The notes: generated by a model from the sequence alone, not told the origin. A stretch of 64,000 nucleotides of DNA from Candidatus Aminicenantes bacterium (GCA_016927475.1 JAFGMO010000012.1:21287-85286), one strand, 5' to 3'; positions 23,690-62,376 are shown, counted from the stretch's first letter. Translations and numbers: made by a program.

Positions 23690-23747
23690 AGGGGTCGAAC
23701 AAAAACGTGATCCGTTCACGCTGATTTAAGATAAAAAGGGCTTTTAA

Positions 23748-23954: not shown

Positions 23955-23974
23955 TTAAATAGAAGGCGAAAAAA

Positions 23975-26557
23975 TCACTCATACCGGAGCGAGTCAACAG
24001 GATTAGATGTGGCTTCCCTTAGGAATTGAAATATAACTGCAGAAATGGCGACGGCGAAAGCTAAAAATGATGAAAAAACAAAAATCTCCAGCCGCATTCC
24101 AATTTTATAAGCAAAATTCCTCAGCCAACCGGACATCACAAAATATGCAAGGGGCCAAGCGATAACATTGGCTATAAGAACCCACAACATAAACTCTTTC
24201 CCCAAAATCAAAATCATATTTCCAGGCGAAGCCCCAAGAACCTTCCGGATACAGATTTCTTTTTTCCTCTGCTCAATGGCAAAAGAAGTCAATCCTATGA
24301 GTCCTAAACAGGCAATAAAAACAGCGAGGCCGGCAAAAACATTGATGAGTTTTCCCATGCGCATTTCCGGCTTATAGTGTCTTTCATACTGTTCTTCCAT
24401 AAAACGGAAGGCGAACGGAATATGAGGAAAGATATTTTTCCATATTTTATTTATATCTGTGAGAGTCATGGGAATGCTATCCTGATGAATTTTTATCAGC
24501 ACATGATTCCAATAATCTTCAGAGCCGATGCCCATAGCCAAAGGGCCGATACCCGAATGGAGCGAATGAAAATGAAAATCCTTCATCACTCCGATGACCC
24601 GGCCTTCCCGTCCGAAAAATGAAAACTTTGCTCCGACAGGAGACTCGGCTTCCATCATTCCGGCCAATGTTTCATTGATCAGAAATGCCTGCGTGGCATC
24701 GGTAGAATATTTTTTTGAAAACGGCCTTCCCTCTGCCAATTCGATATTTAAGGTGTCAAGAAAGTCATAATCCACCAGGTTTCCGGTAACATGAACAATC
24801 TCTTCCGGGTTCTTTCCCTCCCAATTCACGCTAGATGAACTGGTTTCGAAACTGGTCGGATCGGAGTAAGCAGCCGTAACATTCAAAATCCGGGGGTGTT
24901 TCAAGAGTTCGGTTCTCAGAATATCGTATGATTTTTTCATTTCTTTGCTTAGAGAAATCCCTATGAGATTTTCTCTTTCCCAGCCTATTTTTCTGTTGCG
25001 GACATAATCGAGTTGGCTGTAAACAACAATGGCTCCAATAATCAGAATGACCGATATGGAAAACTGAAGAATAACAAGAATCCGTCTGAATCCTGATTTT
25101 TTCTTCCCTTTTTGTAAAACATTCTTAAAAACATGAACGGGACGAAAAGACGAAAGAAATAGAGCTGGATAACTGCCGGCAACACATGCCGCAAATAAAT
25201 TGATTCCAACCAATCCAATAATGGCCTGCCAGTTGAAAAGAGAACGAATAGTTATCTGCTTTCCTGTAAATTTATTGAATTCGGGCAGAATGAGACAAAT
25301 GATTACCAAGGCCAGACCGAGCGCCAAGAAAGTCACAAACATAGACTCTCCGAGAAATTGAACGATCATATGTCTGCGCGTTGCCCCGAGAGTTTTCCGC
25401 ATCCCGATTTCCTTGGCCCTGTTGAACGATATGGCAGTCGTCAGGTTCATAAAATTGAAACATGCAATCAGCAGAATGAACACTGCAACAATGGAAAAGA
25501 TATAAACATAATCGATGCCTCTTAATCCTGGTGACAGCCGGTAATGCGATCGGAGATGAATATCAGAAATGGGTTCCAACAGAATTTCAGTTTTCGCGCC
25601 AGGCGAATATTGCTGGATGATTTTCTTTATTTTCTGATTGACCTCAAAAAATGAGGCTTTCTCTCCGAGTAAGACGTATGTTCGATAGCTGTTCATCCCC
25701 CAGCTATTGGGTTCATACCAATTCATGTGATTCAAATGGGACCACGGCAAAACGAAATCAAACTGGCGAATATGTGTATTATAAGGAATGTCTTGGAAAA
25801 CTCCCCTGACAGTATATTCGAACCGGCTATCAACCTGGATTATTTTTCCGATAGGATCTTCGTTTCCAAAAAAACTTTCAGCCCGTCTCTCACTGATGAG
25901 AGCAGAGTTCGGCGTATTCAGGGATGCTGCCCCTTCCCCTTTGATAAAGGGAAATGTGAAAAGATCAAAAAAAGAGGGCTCTACCACGATCATATTGGTC
26001 TCATTGAACGATTTATTTCCAGAGCGGAGAGGTACACTTCCCCAATAGCTGAGCCTTGTTGTCTCTACGATCTCAGGAAAATCATTTTTCAGTACCTGTC
26101 CCAGCGGAGGAGGTGTGGCTACAATTTTCCGTATTCCCCTTGATGACGGCAAATTCACAACCACTCTATACAAACGATCACGATTCTCATGAAAACGGTC
26201 ATAGCTATGCTCATCCAAAATCCAGAGCGTTATAAGAAGACAGCAGATCAATCCGACAGCTAATCCTGTGATGTTGATAAAAGAATAAGTTTTGTGCCTT
26301 CTCATGTTTCTCCAGGTGATCAAGGCATAGTTCTTAAACATCACCAGCTTGAATCGAATGGCATCCGCAACAAAAGGAGGGACGGATTTAAGTATATTGA
26401 GTGCTAACCAAAAATTCGCGAAAGGTCTTCCCCGGTTAGCGGCGATCTGCGCATATTCCTCTTCGAAATCACCGATGTTTGTATCATCGGCATATCCGGG
26501 TAAAACCCGGCGAAGCATCCAAACCAGGAATTTGGCAGGTTTATTTTTACGACTCAT
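23975..26557 (-). CDS. two-domain FtsX/MacB-like ABC transporter permease with prefix domain
   Basis: MFKNYALITWRNMRRHKTYS motif and duplicated FtsX domains. ATG 26557 overlaps the PadR 3' end by 11 nt. Confidence 0.85.
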   Translation of the reverse strand: MSRKNKPAKFLVWMLRRVLPGYADDTNIGDFEEEYAQIAANRGRPFANFWLALNILKSVPPFVADAIRFKLVMFKNYALITWRNMRRHKTYSFINITGLAVGLICCLLITLWILDEHSYDRFHENRDRLYRVVVNLPSSRGIRKIVATPPPLGQVLKNDFPEIVETTRLSYWGSVPLRSGNKSFNETNMIVVEPSFFDLFTFPFIKGEGAASLNTPNSALISERRAESFFGNEDPIGKIIQVDSRFEYTVRGVFQDIPYNTHIRQFDFVLPWSHLNHMNWYEPNSWGMNSYRTYVLLGEKASFFEVNQKIKKIIQQYSPGAKTEILLEPISDIHLRSHYRLSPGLRGIDYVYIFSIVAVFILLIACFNFMNLTTAISFNRAKEIGMRKTLGATRRHMIVQFLGESMFVTFLALGLALVIICLILPEFNKFTGKQITIRSLFNWQAIIGLVGINLFAACVAGSYPALFLSSFRPVHVFKNVLQKGKKKSGFRRILVILQFSISVILIIGAIVVYSQLDYVRNRKIGWERENLIGISLSKEMKKSYDILRTELLKHPRILNVTAAYSDPTSFETSSSSVNWEGKNPEEIVHVTGNLVDYDFLDTLNIELAEGRPFSKKYSTDATQAFLINETLAGMMEAESPVGAKFSFFGREGRVIGVMKDFHFHSLHSGIGPLAMGIGSEDYWNHVLIKIHQDSIPMTLTDINKIWKNIFPHIPFAFRFMEEQYERHYKPEMRMGKLINVFAGLAVFIACLGLIGLTSFAIEQRKKEICIRKVLGASPGNMILILGKEFMLWVLIANVIAWPLAYFVMSGWLRNFAYKIGMRLEIFVFSSFLAFAVAISAVIFQFLREATSNPVDSLRYE

Positions 26558-26888
26558 TTGAAGCCTTCTTTTCTGAGGAAAATTCGGGAACTCCTGTCCA
26601 CATAGAATCATGAAGCTTTCTGACTTCGTCCAAGGCTTTTAATCCGGGAGGCGTCATTTTGTATATTCGCCTGCTTTTTCCTCCCCGCACGGGAATGGGA
26701 TCAACCAAATAAGATTTGACCAATCCTTTCTTTTCCAGCCGATGCAGGGGCACATAAATGGCACCGAATGACCATGTCTTGCCGGTAAGCTTGGAGACAT
26801 GTTTTCTGATCGAGACACAATAGGCATCTTCTTGCAGCTCCCAGACAGCATGCAGCAAAAGCTCTTCAGGCCGCGATAGAAATTTCAT
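26547..26888 (-). CDS. PadR family transcriptional regulator
   Basis: PadR signature (LHAVWELQEDAYCVSI...GAIYVPLHRLEKKGLV). Confidence 0.9.
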   Translation of the reverse strand: MKFLSRPEELLLHAVWELQEDAYCVSIRKHVSKLTGKTWSFGAIYVPLHRLEKKGLVKSYLVDPIPVRGGKSRRIYKMTPPGLKALDEVRKLHDSMWTGVPEFSSEKKASNES

Positions 26889-44106: not shown

Positions 44107-44184
44107 CACACATAACGTCAAAGCTCACCGGCGGCAATGGAGCGCAGCGGAATTGCCTGTCCGAGTTGATGCGTTTGTTATGTG
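44107..44184 (-). other. attC-like recombination site (attC-L2), minus-strand polarity
   Basis: Minus strand reads ACATAAC-AAACGCATCAACTC...GGCAAT/ATTGCC centre...GAGCTTTGACGTTATGT. R'' ACATAAC pairs with R' GTTATGT, with imperfect L''/L' bulges. It begins 2 nt after the TPR gene stop. Confidence 0.55.
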
Positions 44185-44185
44185 T

Positions 44186-44881
44186 TCACTTCTTTTCCAT
44201 TATTTTCTTTTTCAATTCTAATAAGTTGGCGTTATTTGGCTCCACTTCTAATCCTTCATTGATGAATTCCAAAGCCAAATCATAATTACCCTGCTCAAAA
44301 AATATTTGAGATAATCGCAAAGATTTGGCTATAGAATGCTTCTTAACATCTTCTGGGGAAACGCCACGTAAAGTTGGTTCATAAGTATCTATACTTTCCT
44401 GTGCCAATGATAGATATTTTTCAAATTTCGTCGGAGATGCAGAATACATGAGGTTATGTGTAGTGTTACCTATCATAAAATCAATAAATAATATTTTTGT
44501 GCCTTTGAAAGTAAATGTTCTCTTCACGGCTGGTTTGCCAGCAAACGCGATCTTTTCTATATTAGTATTGGTCCCGATCTTTTTTTCTATTCCTTTAATT
44601 TCTTCTAACATTTCTTCAAAGCTGTTGTAATCAAGTCCTTTTGCTAGGACTCTTAGTTCAACACCATCAGGGGCAATAAAGGCGACCTTTCCACGAGGGT
44701 CTTGCGGATATTGCTGTATCCGCCACCCATCTGGAGGAACAATTTTGAAATAACCATTAGGATCGGAATATCGACTTTTTGCGAGTGTAGCTGTTTTGCT
44801 CTGCGCATTAGCGCTTCCGATTAGCTGAAAAACAAAAAACAATGAAATAATTGTAACACTTGCGAACTTGAATTTTTTCAT
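44186..44881 (-). CDS. TPR-repeat lipoprotein/secreted protein (integron cassette L2)
   Basis: Signal peptide MKKFKFASVTIISLFFVFQLIGSANAQ and C-terminal TPR-like helices. ATG 44881 with AAGGAG lies directly after the R' box of attC-L1. Low GC (~40%). Confidence 0.55.
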   Translation of the reverse strand: MKKFKFASVTIISLFFVFQLIGSANAQSKTATLAKSRYSDPNGYFKIVPPDGWRIQQYPQDPRGKVAFIAPDGVELRVLAKGLDYNSFEEMLEEIKGIEKKIGTNTNIEKIAFAGKPAVKRTFTFKGTKILFIDFMIGNTTHNLMYSASPTKFEKYLSLAQESIDTYEPTLRGVSPEDVKKHSIAKSLRLSQIFFEQGNYDLALEFINEGLEVEPNNANLLELKKKIMEKK

Positions 44882-44895
44882 GTTTATCTCCTTTT

Positions 44896-44981
44896 CACAT
44901 AACACGGGCGTTGAGCTGCGAGGGCCGCGCCTACTCTGAGACGGGGCGCGGACCTCGTCTGCTCCAACGCCTTGTTAGCCG
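44896..44981 (-). other. attC-like recombination site (attC-L1), minus-strand polarity
   Basis: Minus strand reads GGCTAACAAGGCGTTGGAGC...CCGCGCC/GGCGCGG centre...GCTCAACGCCCGTGTTATGT. L'' GGCGTTGGAGC pairs with L' GCTCAACGCC leaving one extrahelical G. The 5' arm resembles the aadA attC (CTAACAA..CGTT..AAGC). R' is GTTATGT. Confidence 0.6.
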
Positions 44982-44990
44982 ACAGCGCAC

Positions 44991-45848
44991 CTACTCGAAG
45001 CCCTGAGGCTCGTACTGCGGGGTCCAGGGCGCAACGCCCTCAACCGCACGTAGAGTGACTCGAAACCGCTGCGGGTAACTGGGATCCCTGCGTGACTTCG
45101 GAATCTCGACGATCGCTACTCCGCGGGACAGCATCGTCTGAAACGTGTAGGCGAGGGTGTTTTCCACGAAGGCTAGCACGTGTCGGCACATGGCAGCCAC
45201 CCACTGGGACACCGGCACGCCATCAACAGGCGGCTCGATCATCGACACTCCCCCCTCAGGCGTAGGCGGGTACTTGACGTCCGGGAGGACCCAGCCCTCA
45301 TGCTCGAGAGCATTGCGACGATCAATGAGACCTTGGGACCAGTCTTGTCGGGCAAGCCGGAAGTACTCGACCAGAGGTTCGTGGCCGGCGGAAGCCAGTA
45401 CAGTCATGCGGCGCTCGAAGTTCGCATCATTAGCGAAGAAGCCCCCTATGTCCAAGCCGAGATGCGCCGTCACCTTTTGCAGCGACTTTGCAGCCCGGAC
45501 CGCGCTATTCAGGAAGCGAGATAGGAGGTCACGGAGGTCATGGTGAATAGCTTCGTGGATCTCGATAGCGTTTCGTTGGCGGCCTACGATCTCGCCTGAT
45601 AGCAGCTTCGCGCGGTGACCCTCTACAAGGGTGTGCAGGGTTTTTGCAGCCTTTCGCATCGCGAACATCTCGTTCAACACAGCCTCGTACAACTCGTCGA
45701 ATGCCAGGCGGCGTGCCTCGCGCTCTCGGTGGGAGATATCGAGAGCGTTGAGGTAATGATCGCGGAGTTCCATCATGCCGCTCATCAAGCGTGCGATGAA
45801 GGGTTTGGCAGTGCCCTCGTCAAGCGCCTTCTGGATCGTCCACTTCAT
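44991..45848 (-). CDS. hypothetical protein (integron cassette L1), high GC
   Basis: 285-aa ORF with no family recognised; there is an Rx5H stretch (RQRNAIEIHEAIHH) reminiscent of HEPN. ATG 45848 lies 5 nt from the GTTAGCC core that terminates the left 140-bp repeat. Confidence 0.4.
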   Translation of the reverse strand: MKWTIQKALDEGTAKPFIARLMSGMMELRDHYLNALDISHREREARRLAFDELYEAVLNEMFAMRKAAKTLHTLVEGHRAKLLSGEIVGRQRNAIEIHEAIHHDLRDLLSRFLNSAVRAAKSLQKVTAHLGLDIGGFFANDANFERRMTVLASAGHEPLVEYFRLARQDWSQGLIDRRNALEHEGWVLPDVKYPPTPEGGVSMIEPPVDGVPVSQWVAAMCRHVLAFVENTLAYTFQTMLSRGVAIVEIPKSRRDPSYPQRFRVTLRAVEGVAPWTPQYEPQGFE

Positions 45849-45855
45849 GCTCGGC

Positions 45856-45996
45856 TAACTATTAATATACAGCATGCTGTATTTGACACAAATTTCCCTC
45901 AATTAACGTCGTATATTATGTGATATCATCGGATATCCCCGCAAAATTGCTGTCTTAGTTTATAATTATCCTGCTTATATTGCAAGTCGTATATTC
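45856..45996. repeat. left copy of a 140-bp inverted repeat pair (candidate attI/Pc module)
   Basis: Reverse-complement of 46643-46782 with about 8 mismatches. Its outer end is GTTA (GTTAGCC on the minus strand). It contains the 18-bp palindrome TATACAGCATGCTGTATA and an outward TATATT. Confidence 0.85.
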
Positions 45997-46028
45997 GATG
46001 GACCTGTTATCCTCTTGAGAGGAATCAA

Positions 46029-46513
46029 TTGAACAATCAACACAAAAATCTTGAGGAGTTTGAAGATTTTATCAAGCGTTTCCATCTTGTTCCCCTAGAG
46101 AAAGCCCGATTTTATGTTTATTGGGTAGAACGATTTATGAAATATTATAAATATAGAACTTCCAAAACGGTGGGAAATATCCTAATGCCAACAAGGAATG
46201 GCCCTGGCAGTGGGTATTTCCCTCGAAAAGCCTTGTGGTGCATCCTAAGAGCGGAAAGCTCTTGCGTCATCATATCCAACCAAGCTTGCTTCAGAGAAAG
46301 ATCAAAAAAGCTGTAAGAAATTCTGATATTTCCAAACCGGCAAGCTGTCATACGCTTCGGCACAGTTTCGCCACTCATCTGCTGGAGGCAGGACATAATA
46401 TCCGAACGATTCAGGAACTCATGGGACATAAAAACGTCAATACCACGATGATATACACTCATGTTGTTCGTAAGAGCTATTCGGATGTTTCCAGCCCTTT
46501 GGACAAACTATAG
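46029..46513 (+). pseudogene. intI: integron integrase (IntI-type tyrosine recombinase) pseudogene with internal deletion
   Basis: The N-terminal segment (EKARFYVYWVERFMKYY) matches the IntI SAM-like N-domain (EQAYVHWVRAFIRFH). A C-terminal segment in another frame ([17 protein letters not shown]...[72 protein letters not shown]...VSSPLDKL) aligns with IntI1 residues ~230-320, including the catalytic Tyr. About 160 central residues, including the catalytic R/K box and the IntI-specific insert, are missing. Confidence 0.7.
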
Positions 46514-46642
46514 AGAAATGATGGCGTGCAGCTAGAGAAAAAAGGCTTCTATCAATTTCTCATCCTAGGATTTTTGTGACAAATTGAAAAGAGTATTTTT
46601 TAGAAATTATTTAGAAAACCTTGAAGGATATTAAAGGAGTTG

Positions 46643-46782
46643 GATATACGACTTGCAATATAAGCAGGATAATTATAAGCTAAGACTGCAATTTTGTGGG
46701 GATATTCGATGATATCACATAATATACGACGTTAATCGAGGGAAATTTGTGTCAAATACGGCATGCTGTATATTAATAGTTA
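46643..46782. repeat. right copy of the 140-bp inverted repeat pair (candidate duplicated attI/Pc module)
   Basis: See the left copy. The outer end is GTTATGT at 46779-46785, where homology with the left copy stops. Confidence 0.85.
46746..46774 (+). promoter_or_regulatory. outward-facing promoter-like element in the right repeat (TTTGTG-N17-TATATT); the mirror copy on the minus strand at 45864-45892 faces cassette L1
   Basis: TATATT at 46769-74 is 34 nt upstream of the DUF4145 ATG, with RBS AGGAATGGAGG. The mirror TATATT at 45869-64 lies 15 nt upstream of ATG 45848. Confidence 0.35.
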
Positions 46783-46808
46783 TGTGAGAGAGGAATGGAG
46801 GCGATACT

Positions 46809-47411
46809 ATGGATATCAATGTGAAGCATTCATGGAAGGCCATCGTAGGCCTATCCTCGCGGGGGTATACGTGCGGATACTGCAATCGCCCCCTCGCGTC
46901 CGAGAAGGGATGGCATTCGAACAATTCCGGTTTCATCTATGTCTGCCATCACTGTACGCGCCCCACCTTCTTCGACTTTCACGGTGAGCAGATCCCGGGT
47001 GTTATGCACGGGAATCCGGTCGGTGACATAACCGACAAGTCAGTTTCCGCCCTTTACGATGAAGCTCGCAGCACAACTCAGGCGAACGCCTACACTGCCA
47101 CGGTTCTCTGCTGCCGGAAGCTCTTGATGCACGTTGCCGTTTCAAAGGGTGCCAAGCTTGGAGAGAGCTTCGCGTTCTACGTCACCTACCTTGCAGAGAA
47201 AAACTTCGTTCCTCCCGACGCAATGGGGTGGATCGATCATATCCGCAAGAAGGGGAACGAAGCGAATCATGAGATCACCATCATGAAAAAGGACGATGCA
47301 GAAGAACTGCTGTCCTTTACGGAGATGCTGCTGAGGATTATCTACGAGTTCCCTGCGATGGTCGCGAAGAAGTACCAGCAAGGACAACAAGGGAAGGGGA
47401 AGACCACATAA
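46809..47411 (+). CDS. zinc-ribbon + DUF4145 domain protein (integron cassette R1)
   Basis: N-terminal CxxC...CxxC (CGYCNRP...CHHCTRP). The C-terminal region matches DUF4145 features (VLCCRKLLMHVA...HIRKKGNEANHE). Confidence 0.55.
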   Translation: MDINVKHSWKAIVGLSSRGYTCGYCNRPLASEKGWHSNNSGFIYVCHHCTRPTFFDFHGEQIPGVMHGNPVGDITDKSVSALYDEARSTTQANAYTATVLCCRKLLMHVAVSKGAKLGESFAFYVTYLAEKNFVPPDAMGWIDHIRKKGNEANHEITIMKKDDAEELLSFTEMLLRIIYEFPAMVAKKYQQGQQGKGKTT

Positions 47412-47427
47412 CAATCGAATCGAACGC

Positions 47428-47496
47428 GACTTAGTGTTAACCGCGCCGCTTCGCTCTGCGGCTAACACTAAGCGGTTCATTCGAGGCGTTATGTCC
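47428..47496 (+). other. candidate short or degenerate attC-like site (attC-R1)
   Basis: Imperfect palindrome CTTAGTGTTAACC-GCGCCGCTTCGCTCTGCG-GCTAACACTAAG (11/12 stem), whose centre GCCGCTTCGC..GCGGCT(T)AAC resembles the aadA attC centre. It is followed by GTTATGT (47489-95), the same R' as attC-L1 and L2. The full fold is unclear. Confidence 0.3.
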
Positions 47497-47531
47497 ATAA
47501 TTGTCATGAATGAATCGAATTATGAGGTTTG

Positions 47532-50500
47532 ATGGAGCAAAAGCGCAAAATAGATAAAGTCAGGGCGTCACGGGACGGCCATGAGTTTCATGAGGCCTGG
47601 ACGGCACGTAAGGCGACTCAGTTGCTATGGCCCGATGCCGAGTTGACTGCTATCGCCGTTGAAGGGCTTTCACCTTCTGATCAGGCTGGGGCGCCCGCGG
47701 CTACGATCGAAGTCGCTGACTTGACGTTCTATTATAAAGGTCCCCCGAATTTCAAGGATTCCGCCCGAACAACAATTGCCCAATTCAAATACTCCATTGC
47801 TGATCATAACAAGGACTTCCGTACCTCTCACGCAAAGAAGACAGTAAAAAAGTTTGGCGTGACCTATCGCTCATATAAACGAAAGTACGGTGCCAAAGCG
47901 GTTGATAATAAACTCGAATTTCAGCTCGTCACGAACCAGCCAATCAGCGAATCATTGCTTCAGGCCATTGAGGCAACGGCAACGGGATCGAGGATTAGCG
48001 GTGATGTTAAGGCGCAGGCAGAGCAGTTAAAGACGGCTTCCGGCTTGTCGGGAAAACCACTGGCTGCATTTGCGAGAAAGATGAAAATTATTGGCCGCTC
48101 TGGGAGCTTGCCGCAAACAAAGGGTGAGCTTGCCAGCATGCTCGTCGACTGGTCTGCCACGAGTGATCCGATTGCTTCCGCCCGGCTCGGGAAGCTTAGA
48201 GAACTTGTACGTGACAAGGCTGGTTATGCCGGTACTAACCGAAATCTGATCAGACGCACTGACGTGCTGGCCGCTCTTAAGATCGGTGACCCGAAAGACT
48301 TACTTCCCTGTGAAGCGGCTCTCGTCGATGTCGGCAAGGTACTGGAGCGGGAGCAGCTCCGCGAGGTCATGAACCGTATCGGAAGTACGTCAACGCCGCT
48401 TCTTATTCATGCGACGGGTGGCGTGGGCAAGACAGTCTTTATGGATTCGCTCGCCTCGAAGATCGCCTCAGACCACGAGATTGTTTTCTTCGATTGTTTT
48501 GGAGGCGGTGCTTACCGCTCTCCAGAAGACGCGCGACACTTACCCAAGAAGGGGCTCATTCATATTGCGAATACACTGGCATTTCGCGGCCTCTGCGATC
48601 CGATGCTCCCGGACAGTCCTGATGTGCACACTTTACTCAGCACGTTCCGCCGCCGCCTTACGCAGTGCCTGAACACCATCTCACGCATGATGCCAGGACG
48701 CAAGCTGGCGATTTTTATTGATGCCATCGACAATGCAGCCTTTGCTGCTGGCCAGGCAAGCGAAGACTGTTTTCCCATTAAGCTGCTGGAGACCCTCGAT
48801 ACGGAACCGATTGATGGCGTAAACCTTATCGTGTCCTGCCGTACAGAACGCAAGCCGAAAACCTATGCCAAGCTCGATGAATTCGAACTGTACCCTTTTA
48901 CCAAGGATGAAACAGCCACGTTTTTGCACGCGCGACTGAAGAGCGTCACAACCATAGAAATAAACGTTGCGCAAGCCCGGTCAGGCGGCAATCCGCGTGT
49001 GCTGGATTACCTGGTCAAGGCAGGTCGCGGCCTTCTTGATCCATCCGAGATCAACAAAGACATCGAGCTGGATGATCTGATTCAACAAAGAATCACGGAT
49101 GCGCTCTCTTTGGCCACAAAGCAGGGTTATAAGGAGAAGGACCTCAGTGCCTTTCTTGCAGGGCTCGCGGTGCTTCCTCCGCCGGTGCCTAAAGATGAGT
49201 ATGCCGCCGCTCATGGTATAGAGCTCGCCGCCATTGAGAGCTTTGCTTCGGACCTTAGCCCTCTACTAGAGCGCACCAATCACGGGCTCATGTTCCGTGA
49301 TGAGCCAACGGAAACACTGATCCACGAGCAATACGCGACATCACGTGATGCGCTTGAGCGTGTCGCATCCAATCTCCTTGCTCGCCAGGATGCGTCGGTA
49401 TATGCAGCCCGTGCGCTTCCGCGTCTGCTACACGAACTCGATGATAATGAGCGGCTGTTCGCACTTGCTTTCGATGATCGTATTCCTGCCTCAATTACCA
49501 GCACAGTTGGCAAGCGCAATATTCAATATGCCCGGCTTAAGGCAGCCACTTTGCACGCGGCTCTCAAGGTTGACTACAACAGCCTTGTACGGCTTCTCGT
49601 CGAGCTATCAACCTTAGCTGAGGTTGATCAGCGTGGAGCCAATTATCTACTGAAACATCCTGATCTTGTTGTTGCTGCCGAAGATGTTGACGCCCGGCGG
49701 CGACTATTTGAAATAAGAACGGCTTGGCCAGGAACACGACATGCGCGTCTTGCTATCGTCAATGTTTTATCGGGTGATCCGACAGAGGCGACCCGTCATG
49801 CACATGCAAATGAAGAGTGGATAAAGCATTACCGGCGCACAGAGCGAAACGATTTTGAGCGTGAACCAATTCCTGATCAGGCCGACATCGCTGCCACAAG
49901 TTTCTTTCTGATCTCGGAAGATCGCACAGAAAATGCGGCCGGCTACCTCACAGGTTGGCGGGACTGGTATGCCTTTGAAGTTTCTCAGCTCGTCCTCGGA
50001 TATGCGCATCTTGCGAGCTTGTTAGGAACTCAGCCCGCTCAACGGACTGAACAATTCATTGATGCGCTCTCCAGTATCGGTCCGATTGCGGCTGCTTTGT
50101 CTTTTCAAGAGCTGGCGAACTCTAAATGCAAGCCGCTTTGCGTCAAACTCGCTGCTCTCTGCAAGAAGGAGACAAAGCTTTACTTGCCGCAAAAAAGTTA
50201 CTCGCGCCCAAAAAACTACGAACTCGAAGACGGTCTAAGGAAGTCGGCCGCCATCGCGCTCTCATTGGGCCTCATCACTGAGGCACAATCTATTTCACTA
50301 AGAGCACGGCATGATCGGCCCGGTATCTGGGCATACCGTGACGCGTTCAACCACACAGAAGTATTCGCTAATATATTCCGAGTTGCCCTGCTTTCTGCTG
50401 CAAAGAAGCGCGCTATTCACGAGAAGGAACTGCTGCCAAAAGAGCTCGTATCGGTCTGCGCGCGCATTCCAAAGACCATTTCTGGAAAAACCTTCCGAGA

Positions 50501-53500
50501 AAAGGCCAAGGAAGAGCTCTCTAAGCTTCCGCGCAAGCCGCGTTACGAAGATGGGCAAACCAAGAACGTGGCGGCTAATGCCATTAGCTATGATGAGCAG
50601 CAGACGGCAGAGCGCTTTCTTGGCATCCGCCTGGAGCCGCTGCTTACTCTCACTGAGGCACTGTCGGCTGCACTCGCAGCATCGGCGCGGACCATTGATA
50701 AGCGCTTTGTCGAGCTTGTGGAAGCCTGGGAGCAGGCGCGAAAAAATCGCGATCACTACCGGGTTGAGGATATCGATCCCTTCTTTCAATTCTTGGGTCT
50801 CGACACTGTTCTCTTCATATTGTGGTCCCGTAGCGAGCTGAAGCCACAATCCATCGAGCGCATGCTGACAGCCGTACATGCCCACATGAGCAATGCCAGT
50901 GATTTGATTCGTATTGTCGCGATTCTATCGCAGCGAACCCCGCTGCACTCGATTGCGGGCGAGCAGGCCGTAAAGGCGCGCGAGATGATTAAGAAAGAGG
51001 ATGAAGTTACCTATCGGGCGTCTCTCTATGGTGCTCTTGGCCGGGCAATCCTTCCTGCCAGCCTTGATGAGGCTGCCTCCTATTTCCGGGATGGTCTGGA
51101 GCAGATGGATGCCATTGGTTCGGGTGATTACCAGTTCACGAATGAACTGCTCTTGTTCGCATCGGAGATGAAAGGTGACGAACTGGAAGAACGTGACTTT
51201 CACACGCTGAGCAATATCTGCGAACTCAATATGGGGGACGAGCCCGAGAAATTTTTCTGGGGTGCGTACGGTCGCGGCATGGCAAAGGCAGCCGGGATGC
51301 GTGGCCTATCCAAGCTCAGTCGCTGGGATGACCGCAACAGGATAGCTCTGGACAACACACTTCTCACCTATCTTACGGGGCTGCTCGAAGCGGGAAAGAT
51401 CGATCCAAAGGGCGCGCTTTGTCTAAACCGCCTCGCCAATCCGGTTGAATATTTCTATGCCGGGACGAAGGAGTTTGCCAAAGCGTTGCGCGCCCAGGCA
51501 GGGCCGGATGCTGAAGTGATTACAGAGCTGATAACACAGTTCGAGGATGACAATCCGACGATAGCGAGTGACGAGACTGTCGAGACACTTTATGCGCTGG
51601 CTGACGAAGCGCTGGGTGCATCGCATGATATAACGAAGCACCTCAAAGCCGCGCGGGACAGATACGAGACCGCAAGGCAAGGACGCAATACTGCGTATGG
51701 TAGTAGCAGCGACTTCGATCCGAAGATGCATAGAGAAGCTGCCAAACGTGACAATGCAAACCGGGAGGCACTCGCACGTATAGCTGAAGCGACGGACCCG
51801 ACCGACGAGGCATCGCTTGTAAAGGCCATCGACGAATTCAATGCACTTGGGAACATGTATGACCTAAAAGGTGGCTTCTTTTCCTCGCTGCGAGCCAAAG
51901 TGCCCTTTGCTGCGCGCGGCCAGTATGTGCGCAATGTTGCCAGTCTGGAGCATCTGTTCTTCTATTGGAAATTCGCAGAACTGAAAGATGCAAAGGAAGC
52001 CTGGGGCGAATCATCCGTAGCGCTTGCTGGTGTTTATAGGAGCCTGGCACAGCCGCTAATTCTTGCCCATGCCGATGATTTGGTCAATGACGGTCGGTTC
52101 TCGGGTTCGAGCATCAAGGAAATATCTGAGTTTACGGGTGTGTCTATGGCCGAACTCGTTCTTGAGGTGATAAAGGTCTTTTCACGTCCTGATAGCACGG
52201 CCGGTGGTTCGGTATGGCTTGCGCTTGCCAATTTCATATGTCCAGCAGCGGATGAAGGGCAGGGGCAACTTGCCCTGAAGCGCCTACTGTCTGGCGACTC
52301 GGCACGGATTGCCGACAACGTAACAGACGGTCCATGGAAAGCAGGCTGCTACCCCGCGGATGTCTTCGCCGAAATTGCTGCTGGGCTAATATGGCGTGTC
52401 CTCGGTTCGCCCCATGCGACTGACAGATGGCGCGCGGCTCACTGCATACGCCGATTTGCAAAGTTCGGGCGCTGGGACATTGTTGACACGGTTGTTGCCG
52501 CCTTTGATACGAAGACTGCTGAACCGTTTCAGGCACCAGAGCTTGTGTTCTATTACCTGCATGCACGGTTATGGCTCCTGATAACCCTGGCGCGGGCCGC
52601 GATCGATCATCCCGATCAGGTGGCGCGTTACAAGGATCTACTCTTGGCTGTCATCATGGAAAAAGATGAGCCGCATGTGCTTAAGCGCCACTTTGCCGCC
52701 AAAGCGCTTCTTGCCTGTATAGAACGCAGCAAACTGGTGCTTGACCCAGCCACGCTCAAGATTGTGCGTAATGCCGACAATTCCCCGAATCCGCGTTTAC
52801 GAAAGAAGATCCGCAACGGCGGCGGCTTCTATCAGGGCCGTCCGAAATCAGTATCCAAGCCTTCCTTTCGTTTTCATCTGGAGTATGACTTTAATAGGCA
52901 TGACGTTGATAACCTCGGCCGTGTCTTCGGCAAGGGCTGCTGGGAAGTTGATGACATGATGTCAAGCATCGTACAAAAGATTGATCCGTCAATGACGCAC
53001 ATGTATGAGGATGGTGACCGCGAGTACCGCGGGCAAAATTCTCATGGAATAACGACTCGCTTTCACGGCTATGGGCAACAGCTCGGCTGGCATGCACTAT
53101 TCATTGCTGCAGGCAAGCTGCTTGCCGCCAATCCTGTAACCAACGACTGGTGGTACGAGGACGACCCGTGGGGAGAGTGGCTTGGCCGCTACGTGCTTAC
53201 GCGAAAGGATGGATTGTGGCTATCCGATGGAACAGACAGGACTCCAGATGACGCATCTGTGAGGCTGCTTGAAACAAAGAAGAAGGGGCTTACGATAACC
53301 GGCGATCAGAAGAAGATTATGGGGCTTGCCGGCATAGATATTGAGAAAGGCATTGGTGAAGAACTGATTGTTCAGGGCAGATGGTATTCATCCGATGGTG
53401 TTGAAATCGGATTATCCTCTGCGCTTGTTCCACCCAAAAAGGCCGAGCAGTTTGCAAGAAAGCTCATTCGCGAAAAGCCGATACTGGCGTGGGTGCCTGC

Positions 53501-54005
53501 TTTCGAGGACGGCGAAGACGATGAAGAATATCTTCATAGTGATAAGAAGGGGTACTCACCTTGGATTGTCTGTCCATCCGGAGAAACACGTTTGGATGAA
53601 CATGATCCATATGGCGTTTCGGTTGCCAATCTTCGGCCGCGCCTTGCGCAAGATTATTCAGAGTTCTGTAAGCTGAAACAGCAAGATGAGTTCGGACGTT
53701 TCTGGAATAACAATCGTGGGACGCTTTCACTTCTAGCCCAAGCCTGGGGGCGCGATGAAACCAATCGAGAAGACGGCCCTCATCCGGGACTGCGGCTTCT
53801 CTGCAAGTCAAGTGTACTTAAGAATTTATTAATGAAGTATGACAGGGAACTGCTATTGCTCTTCAAACTTCAGCGTTATGAGAAAGAAAGTTATCGAAGC
53901 AGCGGACATTTTTTGCATTCTATCGGTGTAGTGAGGATTGATAAGTTGCTCAGTTTGGAGTACGTTAAGGGTCGCGTAAACTACTTACACAAGTCGGAGT
54001 GGTAG
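47532..54005 (+). CDS. giant STAND/NACHT-like P-loop NTPase (2157 aa): N-terminal unknown domain + NTPase + about 1500-aa helical repeat region; candidate defence protein (integron cassette R2)
   Basis: Walker A LLIHATGGVGKTVF (nt ~48409-48450), Walker B LAIFIDAIDNA (nt ~48707-48739), sensor-like LIVSCRTE and GxP-like ARSGGNPRVLDYL. The C-terminus is long and alpha-helical. GC ~57%. ATG 47532 has GAGG upstream. Confidence 0.6.
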   Translation: MEQKRKIDKVRASRDGHEFHEAWTARKATQLLWPDAELTAIAVEGLSPSDQAGAPAATIEVADLTFYYKGPPNFKDSARTTIAQFKYSIADHNKDFRTSHAKKTVKKFGVTYRSYKRKYGAKAVDNKLEFQLVTNQPISESLLQAIEATATGSRISGDVKAQAEQLKTASGLSGKPLAAFARKMKIIGRSGSLPQTKGELASMLVDWSATSDPIASARLGKLRELVRDKAGYAGTNRNLIRRTDVLAALKIGDPKDLLPCEAALVDVGKVLEREQLREVMNRIGSTSTPLLIHATGGVGKTVFMDSLASKIASDHEIVFFDCFGGGAYRSPEDARHLPKKGLIHIANTLAFRGLCDPMLPDSPDVHTLLSTFRRRLTQCLNTISRMMPGRKLAIFIDAIDNAAFAAGQASEDCFPIKLLETLDTEPIDGVNLIVSCRTERKPKTYAKLDEFELYPFTKDETATFLHARLKSVTTIEINVAQARSGGNPRVLDYLVKAGRGLLDPSEINKDIELDDLIQQRITDALSLATKQGYKEKDLSAFLAGLAVLPPPVPKDEYAAAHGIELAAIESFASDLSPLLERTNHGLMFRDEPTETLIHEQYATSRDALERVASNLLARQDASVYAARALPRLLHELDDNERLFALAFDDRIPASITSTVGKRNIQYARLKAATLHAALKVDYNSLVRLLVELSTLAEVDQRGANYLLKHPDLVVAAEDVDARRRLFEIRTAWPGTRHARLAIVNVLSGDPTEATRHAHANEEWIKHYRRTERNDFEREPIPDQADIAATSFFLISEDRTENAAGYLTGWRDWYAFEVSQLVLGYAHLASLLGTQPAQRTEQFIDALSSIGPIAAALSFQELANSKCKPLCVKLAALCKKETKLYLPQKSYSRPKNYELEDGLRKSAAIALSLGLITEAQSISLRARHDRPGIWAYRDAFNHTEVFANIFRVALLSAAKKRAIHEKELLPKELVSVCARIPKTISGKTFREKAKEELSKLPRKPRYEDGQTKNVAANAISYDEQQTAERFLGIRLEPLLTLTEALSAALAASARTIDKRFVELVEAWEQARKNRDHYRVEDIDPFFQFLGLDTVLFILWSRSELKPQSIERMLTAVHAHMSNASDLIRIVAILSQRTPLHSIAGEQAVKAREMIKKEDEVTYRASLYGALGRAILPASLDEAASYFRDGLEQMDAIGSGDYQFTNELLLFASEMKGDELEERDFHTLSNICELNMGDEPEKFFWGAYGRGMAKAAGMRGLSKLSRWDDRNRIALDNTLLTYLTGLLEAGKIDPKGALCLNRLANPVEYFYAGTKEFAKALRAQAGPDAEVITELITQFEDDNPTIASDETVETLYALADEALGASHDITKHLKAARDRYETARQGRNTAYGSSSDFDPKMHREAAKRDNANREALARIAEATDPTDEASLVKAIDEFNALGNMYDLKGGFFSSLRAKVPFAARGQYVRNVASLEHLFFYWKFAELKDAKEAWGESSVALAGVYRSLAQPLILAHADDLVNDGRFSGSSIKEISEFTGVSMAELVLEVIKVFSRPDSTAGGSVWLALANFICPAADEGQGQLALKRLLSGDSARIADNVTDGPWKAGCYPADVFAEIAAGLIWRVLGSPHATDRWRAAHCIRRFAKFGRWDIVDTVVAAFDTKTAEPFQAPELVFYYLHARLWLLITLARAAIDHPDQVARYKDLLLAVIMEKDEPHVLKRHFAAKALLACIERSKLVLDPATLKIVRNADNSPNPRLRKKIRNGGGFYQGRPKSVSKPSFRFHLEYDFNRHDVDNLGRVFGKGCWEVDDMMSSIVQKIDPSMTHMYEDGDREYRGQNSHGITTRFHGYGQQLGWHALFIAAGKLLAANPVTNDWWYEDDPWGEWLGRYVLTRKDGLWLSDGTDRTPDDASVRLLETKKKGLTITGDQKKIMGLAGIDIEKGIGEELIVQGRWYSSDGVEIGLSSALVPPKKAEQFARKLIREKPILAWVPAFEDGEDDEEYLHSDKKGYSPWIVCPSGETRLDEHDPYGVSVANLRPRLAQDYSEFCKLKQQDEFGRFWNNNRGTLSLLAQAWGRDETNREDGPHPGLRLLCKSSVLKNLLMKYDRELLLLFKLQRYEKESYRSSGHFLHSIGVVRIDKLLSLEYVKGRVNYLHKSEW

Positions 54006-54089
54006 GCATCTAAAGTCCACATCTGACCGATAAACTCGCGGAACGAAACGGGAAATTGTTGAAAATCCCAAGCACACGATGCTTGATTA

Positions 54090-54150
54090 GAACATAACCA
54101 ACATTTTGGAGCCGACCGAAAAACCTGGCGGCTCAAAATGAACGTTAGAT
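54090..54150 (+). other. attC-like recombination site (attC-R2), about 60 bp
   Basis: ACATAAC-CAACATTTTGGAGCC-GACCGAAAAACCTGGC-GGCTCAAAATGAAC-GTTAGAT. L'' has an extra G relative to L' (extrahelical), and R' GTTAGAT is identical to the aadA1 R'. It is followed by AAGGAG and ATG 54166. Confidence 0.6.
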
Positions 54151-54165
54151 GAAAGGAGATTTGTC

Positions 54166-54801
54166 ATGAAAAAGGCTTATCTATTATTGGTTCTATCCAG
54201 CAAGAAAGCTATTCTTTACTTTTTCGCTCTCTCCACTATTTCCTTAATAATCAATCCGCTCTATTCCTTGTCAGCCGAAGGTCCTATGGCAGATATTTTA
54301 GATATAGACGGTGCGTCCATATCGGCGGAATTTATCCAGGCTAATTGGGTGGCACCAGGCGACTGGAGGCGTGGTCTCATGCCAGCAGAGGCCCCTTCTA
54401 AATTAACCTCATATTTTGAGATAAAAATAACGGTCAAAGAGGGCAGAGTTATAACCTATGAAACAGTCAATATCCCTTTTAATGATATTAGATCCATTGA
54501 GGTTGATTGGTACAGAATTGACAAAAAAAGAAATACGATAACATTCAATATGCGCAATGGAAAAGCGATCATCTATGTTAAGGAATATGACAATGCAAGC
54601 CATGGAACGTACATAAAGAAAGACCCAAATGGGAATATTTTGTCCAAAGTACCTGCTCCAGATTCACGTCTTACAATCGGAGAATACCAGGGAGTTCCAT
54701 TTGAGTTTGTTGGATTTAAAGGCAGGGCAATAATGAAATCGGGAAAAATCGGTGAATTCTCTATTCCTTACCGGGACGTTAAAAAGTTAGTATTTAAATA
54801 G
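54166..54801 (+). CDS. secreted hypothetical protein (integron cassette R3), low GC
   Basis: Signal peptide; no family recognised. It lies between attC-R2 and attC-R3. Confidence 0.4.
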   Translation: MKKAYLLLVLSSKKAILYFFALSTISLIINPLYSLSAEGPMADILDIDGASISAEFIQANWVAPGDWRRGLMPAEAPSKLTSYFEIKITVKEGRVITYETVNIPFNDIRSIEVDWYRIDKKRNTITFNMRNGKAIIYVKEYDNASHGTYIKKDPNGNILSKVPAPDSRLTIGEYQGVPFEFVGFKGRAIMKSGKIGEFSIPYRDVKKLVFK

Positions 54802-54804
54802 TAT

Positions 54805-54870
54805 TCATCTAACAACGGCATTAAGGCCGACGGTAAAAAAGCCGCCGCGCCTTATGCCGCAGCGTTATGC
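54805..54870 (+). other. attC-like recombination site (attC-R3)
   Basis: ATCTAACAACGGCATTAAGGCCGAC...GCCTTATGCCGCAGCGTTATGC. R'' ATCTAAC is a perfect RYYYAAC and the 5' arm is close to the aadA attC (GTCTAACAATTCGTTCAAGCCGAC). L'' carries an extra A. R' GTTATGC overlaps the ParE stop on the opposite strand. Confidence 0.6.
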
Positions 54871-55161
54871 GGAATCAGACGGCTCAACAATCTCCTGTGC
54901 TCCGTGCCAGACAGCGACAATCCAAATCGTCTTCTTCTCAACGCGATAAAAGAAACGATATGGATTGATCATAATTTCGCGATGCGCCAATTCCGGGAAC
55001 TCAGGAATCACTCGACCAGACTCCGGAAATCTTTCTAGACGTCGGAGAACCCGTTCGGACCTCTCACGAAAACGCTGTGCTGCGGAAGGCTTATCTCTAC
55101 GGATGTATACAAGTGCCTCAAGAAATTGCAGACGAGCCGAGGGCGTGAACCGAACCCTCAC
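54865..55161 (-). CDS. parE: type II toxin, RelE/ParE family (cassette R4)
   Basis: RelE/ParE fold signature (PSARLQFLEALVYIRRD...RFFYRVEKKTIWIVAVWHGAQ). Confidence 0.85.
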   Translation of the reverse strand: MRVRFTPSARLQFLEALVYIRRDKPSAAQRFRERSERVLRRLERFPESGRVIPEFPELAHREIMINPYRFFYRVEKKTIWIVAVWHGAQEIVEPSDSA

Positions 55162-55439
55162 GCCTCACCCTCCCGAAGAAGGGCATCCGCCTCTCGAAGC
55201 ACGCTATCTAGCGAATATCCTTTGCCCTTTGCGATCTCCCTTTCCCCCAACGCGAGCAGGCGCAGTAACTCCCGCTCATGCTGTGAACGTTCGTAGGCTT
55301 CGAGGTTCAACAGAACAGCAGTCGCCCGCCCTCTCTGGGTTATAACAAGGGGTTCCTCGGATTTTTGAAGCTCTTTCAGTACAGACGCTGCGTCCTGCCG
55401 CAGGTCTGTAATAGGAATTATTTTTGGAACTTTCGCCAT
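55158..55439 (-). CDS. phd: type II antitoxin, Phd/YefM family
   Basis: Phd/YefM N-terminal motif (IPITDLRQDAASVLKELQKSEEPLVITQRGRATAVLL). 4-nt overlap with parE. Confidence 0.85.
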   Translation of the reverse strand: MAKVPKIIPITDLRQDAASVLKELQKSEEPLVITQRGRATAVLLNLEAYERSQHERELLRLLALGEREIAKGKGYSLDSVLREADALLREGEA

Positions 55440-55513
55440 ATGACACCTCCAATGGTACGCTTAATAATACCGTATGGCGTATCATAAATCAACGTATTAT
55501 CTCCGCATAACGC

Positions 55514-55590
55514 GTGCATAACCGGTAAAAACGTTTGGCGCGGCCTTTGTACCAAAGGGCGTGACGAGCGGTTTTGTCCGTGGTTATGCG
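55514..55590 (+). other. attC-like recombination site (attC-R4), probable distal end of the right cassette array
   Basis: GCATAAC-CGGTAAAAACGTTTGG-CGCGGCCTTTGTACCAAAGGGCG-...CGGTTTTGTCCGTG-GTTATGC. R''/R' pair as TAAC/GTTA, with a central CCTTTG/CAAAGG stem and bulged arms. Confidence 0.45.
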
Positions 55591-60000: not shown

Positions 60001-62376
60001 ATGCTGATTCATGATGTTCGAATGACTTTTCGTCAATTCAAGAAATATCCGGGGTATTCTTTCCTTAATATTTTCGGTTTGGCCGTCGGAATGGCCTGTT
60101 TTTTCCTCATATTCCTCTGGGTAAAGAATGAGCTCGACTATGACCGCTTTTTTGACCATGCCGAGCGGATCTACCGGGTGACCTCGGATGTCAGCCTGAG
60201 ATCGGGCCAAAAAAAATTCTACGCCTATTCCACTCCCGCTTTGGCTGAAGCGTTAAAAAAAGAATATCCTGAAGTTATGGCCGCGGCGCGCTTTCGGCCT
60301 GCCGGGAGGGTGCTTCTTCAGAAAGATGATCAGAGCTTTTTTGAATCCGGGTTTATATTCGCCGACTCCGGATTCCTGGAAGTTTTTTCCGCTCCGCTCC
60401 TTCAAGGAAACCGGGAGGAGGTATTGAAGGAACCGCATTCGCTGCTGCTTTCCCAGGAAACGGCTCAAAAATATTTTGGGGATGAAAACCCGGTGGGAAA
60501 AACTTTGCTGGTAGATCATGAACATGAATACAGGGTGACCGGAGTTTTGGGAACTCTCCCGGCCAATACTCATTTCCGGCTGGATTTTCTCGCTTATCCC
60601 GGAGAGGACGACTTGTTCCATCCACCTAACTGGATGTCGCTATCGGTGTTTGTTTATGTCCTTCTCGACCAAAATGTTCCTGTTTTGGAGTTTGAAGCTA
60701 AAATCCAGGATCTAGCGGTAAAATATATCGGTCCAAGAGGAAAAGAGATCTTTACCTACAGGCTCCAGTCCTTGACTTCCATCCATCTTCACTCCGACCT
60801 TGAGGGGGAGTTTGCCCCGGTTATGAACGTTTTGCAGGTTTATCTTTTTATGGCTGTCGCAGTTTTGATTTTATGTGTCGCCTGTATCAATTTTGTCAAT
60901 CTTTCCACGGCCAGGGCCGGAAAAAGATCCCGTGAAGTCGGAGTACGCAAAGTTTTAGGCGCGCACCGGCTCCTGTTGGGACGGCAATTTTTCAGCGAGT
61001 CGATGTTTTCCGCTTTGGCGGCCTTTATTCTAAGTCTCGGTTTGGTGCATCTTTTGCTGCCCTTGTTCAACTCGCTCAGCGAGGGGCGGCTTAAAATGGT
61101 TTATGGTGAATATTTTGTTCTATGTGCCGGCATCGTTCTTCTGGTCGGAATATTGTCCGGCAGCTACCCGGCGGTTTTGCTTTCTTCCTTTAAGCCTTCT
61201 TCCGCGCTGAGGGAAGAAGCGCATAAAGGAAAGTCCGGGCTGCTTGTCCGCAGGGCTTTGATTGTTTTTCAATTTGCGGTGACCGTGTTTCTGCTTTTTT
61301 CCACAGGAGTCGTTTATAAACAAATGAAGTTCATGCGCAGCCGGAACCTCGGCTTCGACCAGGAACACATTGTTTCCGTCCGTATGAGAGGTGAAAATGT
61401 AGTGGGGGATTATGAAACGGTTAAAAATGAACTGCTGCGCCATCCCGATATTTTAAAAGCCTCGGCAGCGTGGTCTGTTCCGGGATTTTCCATTGCCCAG
61501 AGGGCATATGTGCCTGAAGGTTTTGAGGATAGAGCCATGATGGTTTTGACCCTCTATGTCGATCATGATTTTGTTTCGACCCTGGGATTGTCTTTAAAGG
61601 AAGGGCGTGACTTTTCCCGTAATATCGCCTCCGACACCCTGACGGCTTATATCATCAATGAAGCCGCTCAGAAAAAGTTTGGCTGGCAGGAACCGATCGG
61701 TAAAAAATTAACCTGCCGTGGTCGTGATGAAGATGAAAAAACAGCCTTCGGAAAGGTTATAGGTGTGGTTAAAGATTTCCATTTTCGTTCCCTGCACCAG
61801 TCGATCGAGCCGGTATTGCTGCGGATCAGGCCTGACCGTTTTTTGCTTATGAATATGAAACTGAGAGGCGAAAATGTATCACGGACAATGCGATTTATCG
61901 AAGAGACTTTTTCCCGCCTGCAGCCGGAATATCCCTTTGAATACTGGTTTCTGGATGAGCGCCTCGATAATCTTTACCGGAATGAAGAACGGCTGGCCGG
62001 CATCTTCTCCGCTTTTTCCTTGATTGCCGTTTTTATAGCCTGTCTGGGATTATTCGGTTTGGCCGCTTATCTTGCCGAACAAAAGACCAAAGAAATAGGC
62101 ATTCGAAAAGTCTTAGGAGCGGGAACCGGCGGTCTGGTCTGGCTGATCAGCCGGGATTTTGTCAAATGGGTCGGAATTTCCAGTTTGTTCGCCTGGCCTT
62201 TCGCCTTCATGGCTATGCGAAAATGGCTCCAGCATTTTTCTTACCGAACGGAAATAGGGATTTTGGTCGCGGCCTTATCCGGATTAACGGCCGTGCTGAT
62301 CGCTTTTTTCACCGTGAGCTTTCAGGCAGTCAAAGCGGCCAGGACGAATGTGGTTAGGTCAATTCGCCGTGAATAA
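60001..62376 (+). CDS. two-domain FtsX/MacB-like ABC transporter permease (no prefix domain, no PadR partner)
   Basis: Starts directly at TM1 (YSFLNIFGLAVGMACFFLIFLWV), with duplicated FtsX domains. Confidence 0.85.
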   Translation: MLIHDVRMTFRQFKKYPGYSFLNIFGLAVGMACFFLIFLWVKNELDYDRFFDHAERIYRVTSDVSLRSGQKKFYAYSTPALAEALKKEYPEVMAAARFRPAGRVLLQKDDQSFFESGFIFADSGFLEVFSAPLLQGNREEVLKEPHSLLLSQETAQKYFGDENPVGKTLLVDHEHEYRVTGVLGTLPANTHFRLDFLAYPGEDDLFHPPNWMSLSVFVYVLLDQNVPVLEFEAKIQDLAVKYIGPRGKEIFTYRLQSLTSIHLHSDLEGEFAPVMNVLQVYLFMAVAVLILCVACINFVNLSTARAGKRSREVGVRKVLGAHRLLLGRQFFSESMFSALAAFILSLGLVHLLLPLFNSLSEGRLKMVYGEYFVLCAGIVLLVGILSGSYPAVLLSSFKPSSALREEAHKGKSGLLVRRALIVFQFAVTVFLLFSTGVVYKQMKFMRSRNLGFDQEHIVSVRMRGENVVGDYETVKNELLRHPDILKASAAWSVPGFSIAQRAYVPEGFEDRAMMVLTLYVDHDFVSTLGLSLKEGRDFSRNIASDTLTAYIINEAAQKKFGWQEPIGKKLTCRGRDEDEKTAFGKVIGVVKDFHFRSLHQSIEPVLLRIRPDRFLLMNMKLRGENVSRTMRFIEETFSRLQPEYPFEYWFLDERLDNLYRNEERLAGIFSAFSLIAVFIACLGLFGLAAYLAEQKTKEIGIRKVLGAGTGGLVWLISRDFVKWVGISSLFAWPFAFMAMRKWLQHFSYRTEIGILVAALSGLTAVLIAFFTVSFQAVKAARTNVVRSIRRE

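Follow-up and report, generated by a model that had tools for sequence, protein, structure and literature searches.

A window of 64,000 nucleotides (nt) from a Candidatus Aminicenantes metagenome-assembled genome (MAG; GCA_016927475.1, JAFGMO010000012.1:21287-85286), in which positions are counted from the first letter of the whole stretch, contains a remnant of an integron integrase, attI-like and attC-like elements and a series of gene cassettes, one of which holds a single gene of 6.5 kb. The present analysis concerns this gene and its cassette, which are best explained, with good confidence, as a single-chain antiviral STAND protein of the Avs3 lineage carried as integron cargo. The open reading frame (ORF) is intact, as described in a first-pass annotation made from the sequence alone; its G+C content was computed as 52.7%, not the 57% given there, compared with 46.2% for the window and 48% and 45% for the two 5-kb flanks. 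Translation may begin at TTG 47529 or, more likely, at ATG 47532, which is preceded at 7 nt by a GAGG Shine-Dalgarno sequence, both starts sharing the end at 54005. An identical protein, with the gene order kept and the upstream DUF4145 gene included, occurs in an independent Logan assembly (L008), and PGAP labels the exact protein, recorded on a 185-kb contig, as 'ATP-binding protein', nothing more specific. The features of the locus are collected in Table 1.

Table 1. Coordinates of the Avs3-like gene, its domains, its cassette and the adjoining integron features (positions within the window).
Feature	Position	Strand	Basis or remark
Avs3-like gene	47532..54005	+	ORF list and translation; 2,157 aa plus stop, counted from ATG
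Putative N-terminal nuclease domain, residues ~1-270	47532..48341	+	Aligns with SeAvs3 residues 7 to ~270
STAND NTPase module, residues ~271-620	48342..49391	+	Weak Pfam matches, invariant Walker residues, colinear with SeAvs3
Putative C-terminal sensor, residues ~621-2157	49392..54002	+	Alpha-solenoid; alpha/beta domain starting near residue 1905
Integron cassette, 6,656 bp	47489..54144	+	TT of upstream R' core to G of own R' core
attC of preceding cassette, 89 nt	47406..47494	+	R'' ACATAAC, R' GTTATGT; 5' boundary of Avs3 cassette
attC of Avs3 cassette, 59 nt	54092..54150	+	R'' ACATAAC, R' GTTAGAT; scan and fold
Integron-integrase pseudogene	46029..46513	+	Internal deletion and frameshift, seen in three-frame translation
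attI-like element, 156 nt	46644..46799	+	Cassette junction at core GTTATGT 46779-46785
First right-array cassette, PD-T7-4-like	46780..47488	+	200-aa DUF4145 protein (46809-47411)
Two downstream cassettes	54145..55589	+	211-aa ORF with attC 54807-54870; reverse-oriented antitoxin cassette with attC 55516-55589

Affiliation of the protein with Avs3

Profile, sequence and fold searches all point to Avs3 (AVAST type 3). PADLOC matched Avs3a as the sole family (E = 1e-202), with no other defence model at E <= 1, and the NCBIfam match was NF041816, "AVAST type 3 anti-phage nuclease/ATPase Avs3a", at 777 bits. In a sequence search of the entire PDB the only match was SeAvs3, the Avs3 of Salmonella enterica (8dgc_A, E = 8e-124), whose entry 8DGC is entitled "Avs3 bound to phage PhiV-1 terminase". 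The alignment consists of two colinear stretches, query residues 10-821 against chain residues 7-823 and 1158-2121 against 1114-2051, and a profile built from 12 homologs again retrieved SeAvs3 alone from the PDB, at 1.6e-173.

The N-terminal ~280 aa, to which no motif had been assigned in the first-pass annotation, proved interpretable, since ~270 aa align with the nuclease region of SeAvs3, a domain described as Cap4 with a PD-(D/E)xK active site (PMC12803255). Residues E44, D63, Q84 and K86 pair with SeAvs3 E41, D62, Q82 and K84, are invariant in the 12 homologs (59-88% identity) and, judging from the motif, would constitute the PD-(D/E)xK catalytic set. A Pfam scan returned no family besides NTPase models at E <= 0.01; these were AAA_16 at residues 271-405 and NACHT (PF05729) at 293-466, both under their gathering scores (23.6 versus 26.7 bits for PF05729). 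The NTPase motifs read earlier are all present, namely Walker A GGVGKT (296-301), Walker B LAIFIDAID (392-400, including DAID), LIVSCRTE (432-439, including SCRTE) and SGGNPRVLDYL (484-494), and their key residues, G296-T301 of Walker A, D397 and D400 of Walker B, and R437, are invariant among the same homologs. Within the putative sensor, residues 1158-2121 match SeAvs3 1114-2051 with an independent E-value of 2.7e-43, and the C-terminal 460 residues alone (1662-2121) match SeAvs3 1599-2051 at 4e-29. Foldseek, run with a model of residues 958-2157, ranked 8dgc_A first (E = 1e-19), followed by generic solenoids (5e-4). The ~1500 aa proposed earlier as helical repeats are not repeats throughout, the last ~250 residues being mixed alpha/beta in the low-confidence model.

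Several results weigh against a straightforward assignment to this family. The NCBIfam score of 776.9 bits falls short of the equivalog cut-off of NF041816, 2,800 bits, and identity to the NCBI-annotated Avs3a of a Klebsiella plasmid (2,092 aa) is 29.7% over residues 10-810 and 23.0% over residues 1127-2120. Residues 821-1157 have no detectable sequence match, and a search of the PDB with 821-1159 alone returned none at E <= 10. The AlphaFold model of residues 958-2157 is of low confidence (pLDDT 63), served only for ranking PDB matches and reaches a global TM-score to 8dgc of only 0.21, while the AlphaFold2 model of residues 1-1000 (pLDDT 59) was left out of the fold search. A promoter and terminator scan of 45700-47700 yielded nothing useful, with no sigma-70-like promoter 5' of the gene. 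Finally, tblastn with the Klebsiella Avs3b detected no homolog in the window or in the related loci L001-L089, L089 being the Klebsiella plasmid locus, where the avs3b gene overlaps. The missing Avs3b homolog and the identity of 23-30% therefore mark a distinct, solo Avs3-like clade.

The gene product is a divergent, Avs3b-less member of Avs3, a known and mechanistically characterised family, and for this reason the headline claim of the first-pass annotation, a novel NLR-like protein, fails. What it had recognised as a STAND-type defence ATPase with the order effector, NTPase and sensor is sound, the domain order being that of SeAvs3; the effector and trigger that it had left unassigned correspond in Avs3 to a PD-(D/E)xK nuclease and the phage large terminase, respectively (PMC13601566, PMC11564622).

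The likeness to SeAvs3/Avs3a covers length (2,157 versus 2,092 aa), the succession of N-terminal nuclease, STAND NTPase, long solenoid and C-terminal domain, the colinear alignment at both ends, and the conservation of the E/D/QxK residues and Walker motifs. The differences lie in the low identity, the score under the equivalog cut-off, the unalignable ~340 residues in the middle, the lack of an overlapping avs3b gene such as that of the Klebsiella plasmid locus, and carriage as an integron cassette. The two further Avs families that sense terminase, Avs1 and Avs2, follow the same three-part logic, and Avs1 was reported to be structurally similar to Avs3 (PMC13601566), but no Avs1 or Avs2 model matched the protein in PADLOC or NCBIfam at E <= 1. 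SeAvs7 shares a Cap4-type nuclease effector released by tetramerisation (PMC12803255); it differs in joining the Cap4 nuclease and STAND NTPase to a TPR sensor triggered by the major capsid protein, and it was absent from the PDB profile matches.

A search with just the sensor returned 1,370 clusters at 50% identity, 470 of them at E <= 1e-30; among the matches listed, full-length members are mostly 2,120-2,215 aa long and have the sensor at the same position. The Avs3-like clade is a large one, with a stable architecture. When GTDB species genomes were scanned, full-length relatives turned up patchily across phyla at identities of 33-88%, their record titles naming Gamma-, Beta- and Deltaproteobacteria, Acidobacteriota, Nitrospirota, Planctomycetota, Verrucomicrobiota, Myxococcota, Leptospira, Thermotogae and others. 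Copies 86-90% identical were found in Desulfobacterales, Desulfobulbaceae, Syntrophobacteraceae, Marinimicrobium and Nitrococcus, a degree of identity between such distant taxa that indicates recent horizontal transfer of the gene. Every domain is under purifying selection, with dN/dS (the ratio of nonsynonymous to synonymous divergence) against close homologs of 0.14-0.19 overall and 0.10-0.33 per domain. Synonymous divergence (dS) varies along the gene in comparisons with L002, L009 and others, being 0.09 in residues 1158-1650 and 0.48 in residues 1-280 against L002, which suggests recombination between cassette alleles.

The neighbours of the homologs include SIR2 and AbiGi (L005), HEPN, HipA and a restriction endonuclease (L004), Abi_alpha (L002), TIR and a type I restriction-modification system (L001), BrxR and an SNF2 helicase (L093), and, in L007, an Mrr-like gene together with an OLD-TOPRIM/UvrD helicase pair that, in our reading, resembles Gabija. 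The first-pass annotation had itself raised the possibility of a conserved core gene; the six homolog neighbourhoods with Pfam calls consist instead of defence-type genes or cassette arrays.

Cassette boundaries, mobility and size

Both hairpins that bound the cassette have the features of attC sites. The upstream one, which folds as DNA at -27.4 kcal/mol (z = -6.6), contains bulged bases and an unpaired spacer, and its R' core GTTATGT occupies 47488-47494; the downstream one (z = -5.1) has an unpaired spacer and a bulged base and is followed by GGAG and then by the ATG of the next cassette. The placement proposed earlier, between GTTATGT (47489) and an attC at 54090-54150, was therefore borne out by folding. 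DNA similarity of 89-91% to L001 (Desulfobacterales) and to L002/L003 starts at 47485-47488, the G of the upstream R' core, and stops at 54080-54084, just before R''. Carriage as an integron cassette, also read in the first-pass annotation, is thus upheld by folded attC sites on both sides, by breakpoints at the R' core, and by an intI remnant with attI.

The attC sites were called with a home-made scanner, with relaxed and constrained versions of it and by eye. The first version, which required pairing of AAC with GTT in the minimum free energy structure and at least 5/7 complementarity of R'' and R', failed to pick up the sites of L001, L002 and L004 as well as real ones at 44110, 44897 and 54807 in the window, so that its zero count in ~60 distant loci is weak evidence. 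The relaxed scan gave 8 matches in the window versus about 2 per shuffle, and five of these lie outside coding sequence, all within 44.1-55.6 kb and next to the integrase remnant. Internal attC remnants, which the first-pass annotation had envisaged as a sign of fused cassettes, were represented by a sole candidate at 51848-51942, rejected as being at chance level; the colinear SeAvs3 alignment likewise argues against fusion.

About 15 loci with >=76% identity were examined; eight of these are flanked by attC on one side or both, and the others are ordinary defence islands or contexts without attC. The upstream genes differ among the window, L001, L002, L048 and L092, and the upstream attC bodies differ in the comparison with L001 and L002/L003. 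L002, L009 and L092 have one downstream attC type in common; in L048 the leader sequence is again preceded by an R' core, and downstream sites with R'' ACATAAC are present in L004 and L066. The recurrence of a common cassette junction in other taxa indicates that the gene has spread by integron recombination.

Between orthologous Avs3-like cassettes, which are 86-90% identical in nt, the 5' junction is retained, as are ~80 nt of the 3' untranslated region up to R''; the attC bodies show no sequence relationship and vary in length (regions compared: window 54085-54150, L001 16552-16620, L002 11568-11626, L004 ~16595-16690). An attC body is not swappable by exchange at the G/TT crossover, yet the bodies differ between orthologous cassettes.

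The size of the cassette had been remarked on earlier as unusual, and rightly so, as the largest cassettes known in 2016 were cited at ~2 kb, half of the 4-kb default distance adopted for attC clustering in IntegronFinder (PMC4889954). At this default, the sites at 47406 and 54092 would not be joined, so the gene would probably escape listing as a cassette. Integron defence systems have been described as compact and shorter than their counterparts outside integrons, with recombination falling as cassette length increases and with PD-T7-4 among the commonest defence cargo (Darracq et al., 2024, bioRxiv 10.1101/2024.07.02.601686). The chromosomal-integron cassettes of that survey resemble the present one in having a promoterless defence gene between attC sites, and the neighbours here, PD-T7-4-like and toxin-antitoxin cassettes, are of types common in it; the survey's systems, in contrast, are small, whereas the cassette here, from a host other than Vibrio, spans 6.7 kb. 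No Avs was found in one supplementary file of Darracq et al. (2024), and neither Kieffer et al., on mobile integrons, nor a 2026 cassette-recovery preprint mentions Avs.

The one unusual feature of this gene is its transfer among distantly related bacteria in an integron cassette of very large size (6.7 kb). A broader proposal, which we consider evenly balanced between true and false, is that integrons can move a 6.7-kb single-gene NLR-like immune receptor between phyla, that giant cassettes escape surveys based on 4 kb, that the rule of compact cargo is partly a detection artefact, and that two inverted attI copies, described below, feed two divergent arrays. Cargo of this size would also have escaped Darracq et al. 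if the default distance was used there. As regards the protein, the finding adds little beyond a divergent, widely transferred, Avs3b-less clade of Avs3 missed by the NCBI naming rule. The integron context is the more useful and interesting aspect, and integron surveys with the distance threshold raised could reveal whether large immune receptors are carried regularly.

Proposed mode of action and alternatives

SeAvs3 tetramerises upon binding the large terminase and then degrades double-stranded DNA (dsDNA); it recognises active-site residues of the terminase together with bound ATP (PMC13601566, PMC11564622), that is, invariant features, so that minimal sequence similarity among terminases is tolerated (PMC13601566). 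By homology, the protein of the window would persist as an autoinhibited monomer, to be activated when its C-terminal solenoid and alpha/beta sensor engage a conserved phage protein, of which the large terminase subunit is the most probable. Sensor binding, together with ATP, would allow the central STAND NTPase to drive oligomerisation, to a tetramer in the case of SeAvs3, which would bring the N-terminal PD-(D/E)xK nuclease domains together and lead to degradation of dsDNA with no sequence preference, halting the infected cell ahead of phage release (abortive infection). Trigger identity, oligomeric state and abortive infection are all inferred from homology with SeAvs3.

The large terminase is favoured as the trigger at somewhat better than even odds: the sensor shares only 23% identity with annotated Avs3a, and many other phage folds are sensed by related Avs families. 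Specificity is not readable from such identity, and other Avs families of similar layout sense other phage proteins (PMC12803255), both points adding to those that weigh against the assignment above. It is conceivable, though in our view rather unlikely, that the architecture and output (a STAND-controlled nuclease and abortive infection) are as described but that the phage protein sensed by this divergent clade is not the large terminase. Such a reading would accommodate the low identity of the sensor and the ~340 residues (821-1157) with no detectable similarity, and it agrees with the many phage folds detected by Avs proteins with similar solenoid sensors, KpAvs2 even recognising several proteins (PMC12803255, PMC11564622). 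Yet ~960 residues of the sensor are colinear with that of SeAvs3, the C-terminal alpha/beta domain included, SeAvs3 itself reads terminase features that survive sequence divergence (PMC13601566), and no other Avs profile or structure matched the protein. A housekeeping STAND regulator of the MalT/AfsR type, contemplated in the first-pass annotation, would fit the weak AAA_16 and NACHT matches that are all Pfam gives, but is barely credible, as Pfam and NCBIfam scans found no DNA-binding domain, the N-terminus aligns with a nuclease domain, homology to Avs3 is specific and full-length, and relatives at up to 88% identity are patchily distributed across phyla.

Two further alternatives concern the state and the mobility of the gene. 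Loss of the defence function, with the gene surviving as a decaying or inactive relic, might be suspected from the adjoining integrase pseudogene and from the promoter scan, although an intact 6.5-kb frame, motif residues that are all invariant, dN/dS of 0.14-0.19 in every comparison and the identical protein and gene order in the second, independent assembly (L008) make it very improbable. It is also improbable, though less so, that the gene is not a mobile cassette at all, lying between two hairpins by coincidence or having entered the array by another route. Such an origin could be invoked for a cassette more than three times as long as the largest known in 2016, for which ~2 kb was cited (PMC4889954), given that recombination is reported to fall with cassette length (Darracq et al., 2024), that the close homologs L005, L006, L010, L093 and L094 have no attC, and that the attC bodies differ between orthologous copies and were called with a home-made scanner. 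Against it, similarity to L001, L002 and L003 starts 0-3 nt from the G/TT crossover of the upstream R' core, with different upstream neighbours in every case; R''/R' boxes, spacers and bulged bases are present in the downstream hairpins; L002, L009 and L092 share one attC type; and an intI remnant and a conserved attI lie next to the array. The reading retained is therefore that of an Avs3-lineage protein carried as a cassette.

Integrase, attI and neighbouring cassettes

The C-terminal fragment of the integrase matches positions 225-315 of the 315 in TIGR02249 'integron integrase' (E = 2e-40). The attI-like element ends in ...AATAG/TTATGT, where the first cassette starts. In L091, a 2.7-kb metagenome contig (JGI Ga0180433_10091065), a longer and nearly identical intI at 1590-2599 is followed by a spacer of ~130 nt, by the same element with the same ...AATAG/TTA junction and by a co-directional cassette; since this contig places it between intI and a cassette with the same junction, the 156-nt element is read as attI. 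Integrase and cassettes run in the same direction in the L091 integron, where the attI is followed by a 410-aa ORF bearing an S-x-x-K motif. When the surroundings of the homolog loci were searched with tblastn for an intact intI, only distant tyrosine recombinases came up. The host integron of the Candidatus Aminicenantes MAG is a degenerate chromosomal integron, and, its integrase being broken, the cassette is probably fixed in this host unless an integrase acts in trans.

The right-hand array runs from attI through the DUF4145/PD-T7-4-like, Avs3-like and 211-aa ORF cassettes to the reverse Phd-type antitoxin with its partner, with four attC sites on the plus side. The DUF4145 protein was assigned by Pfam (DUF4145, E = 6e-10), with a weak PADLOC match to PD-T7-4 (E = 7e-7). 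The 211-aa ORF (54166-54801) had no family match. The reverse cassette (54865-55439, minus strand) encodes a Phd/YefM-type antitoxin at 55158-55439 (TIGR01552 phd_fam, E = 4e-9) and a 98-aa partner ORF for which no family match was found.

The 156-nt attI-like element is present twice, at 45839-45994 and 46644-46799, in inverted copies that are 91% identical and flank the broken intI. Up to ...AATAGTTA the two copies are the same, and beyond it they lead into different first cassettes, so that the arrangement looks like one integron platform feeding two divergent arrays. The left array (44110-45858, minus strand) comprises a 285-aa ORF at 60% G+C with an attC at 44897-44980, followed by a TPR protein from ATG 44882 and an attC at 44110-44183. 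The L008 contig ends inside the right attI copy. The remainder of the window is ordinary chromosomal content, in which four paralogous MacB_PCD/FtsX permease genes (~790-885 aa), unrelated to the finding, are located at 17196-26611 and 60001-62376.

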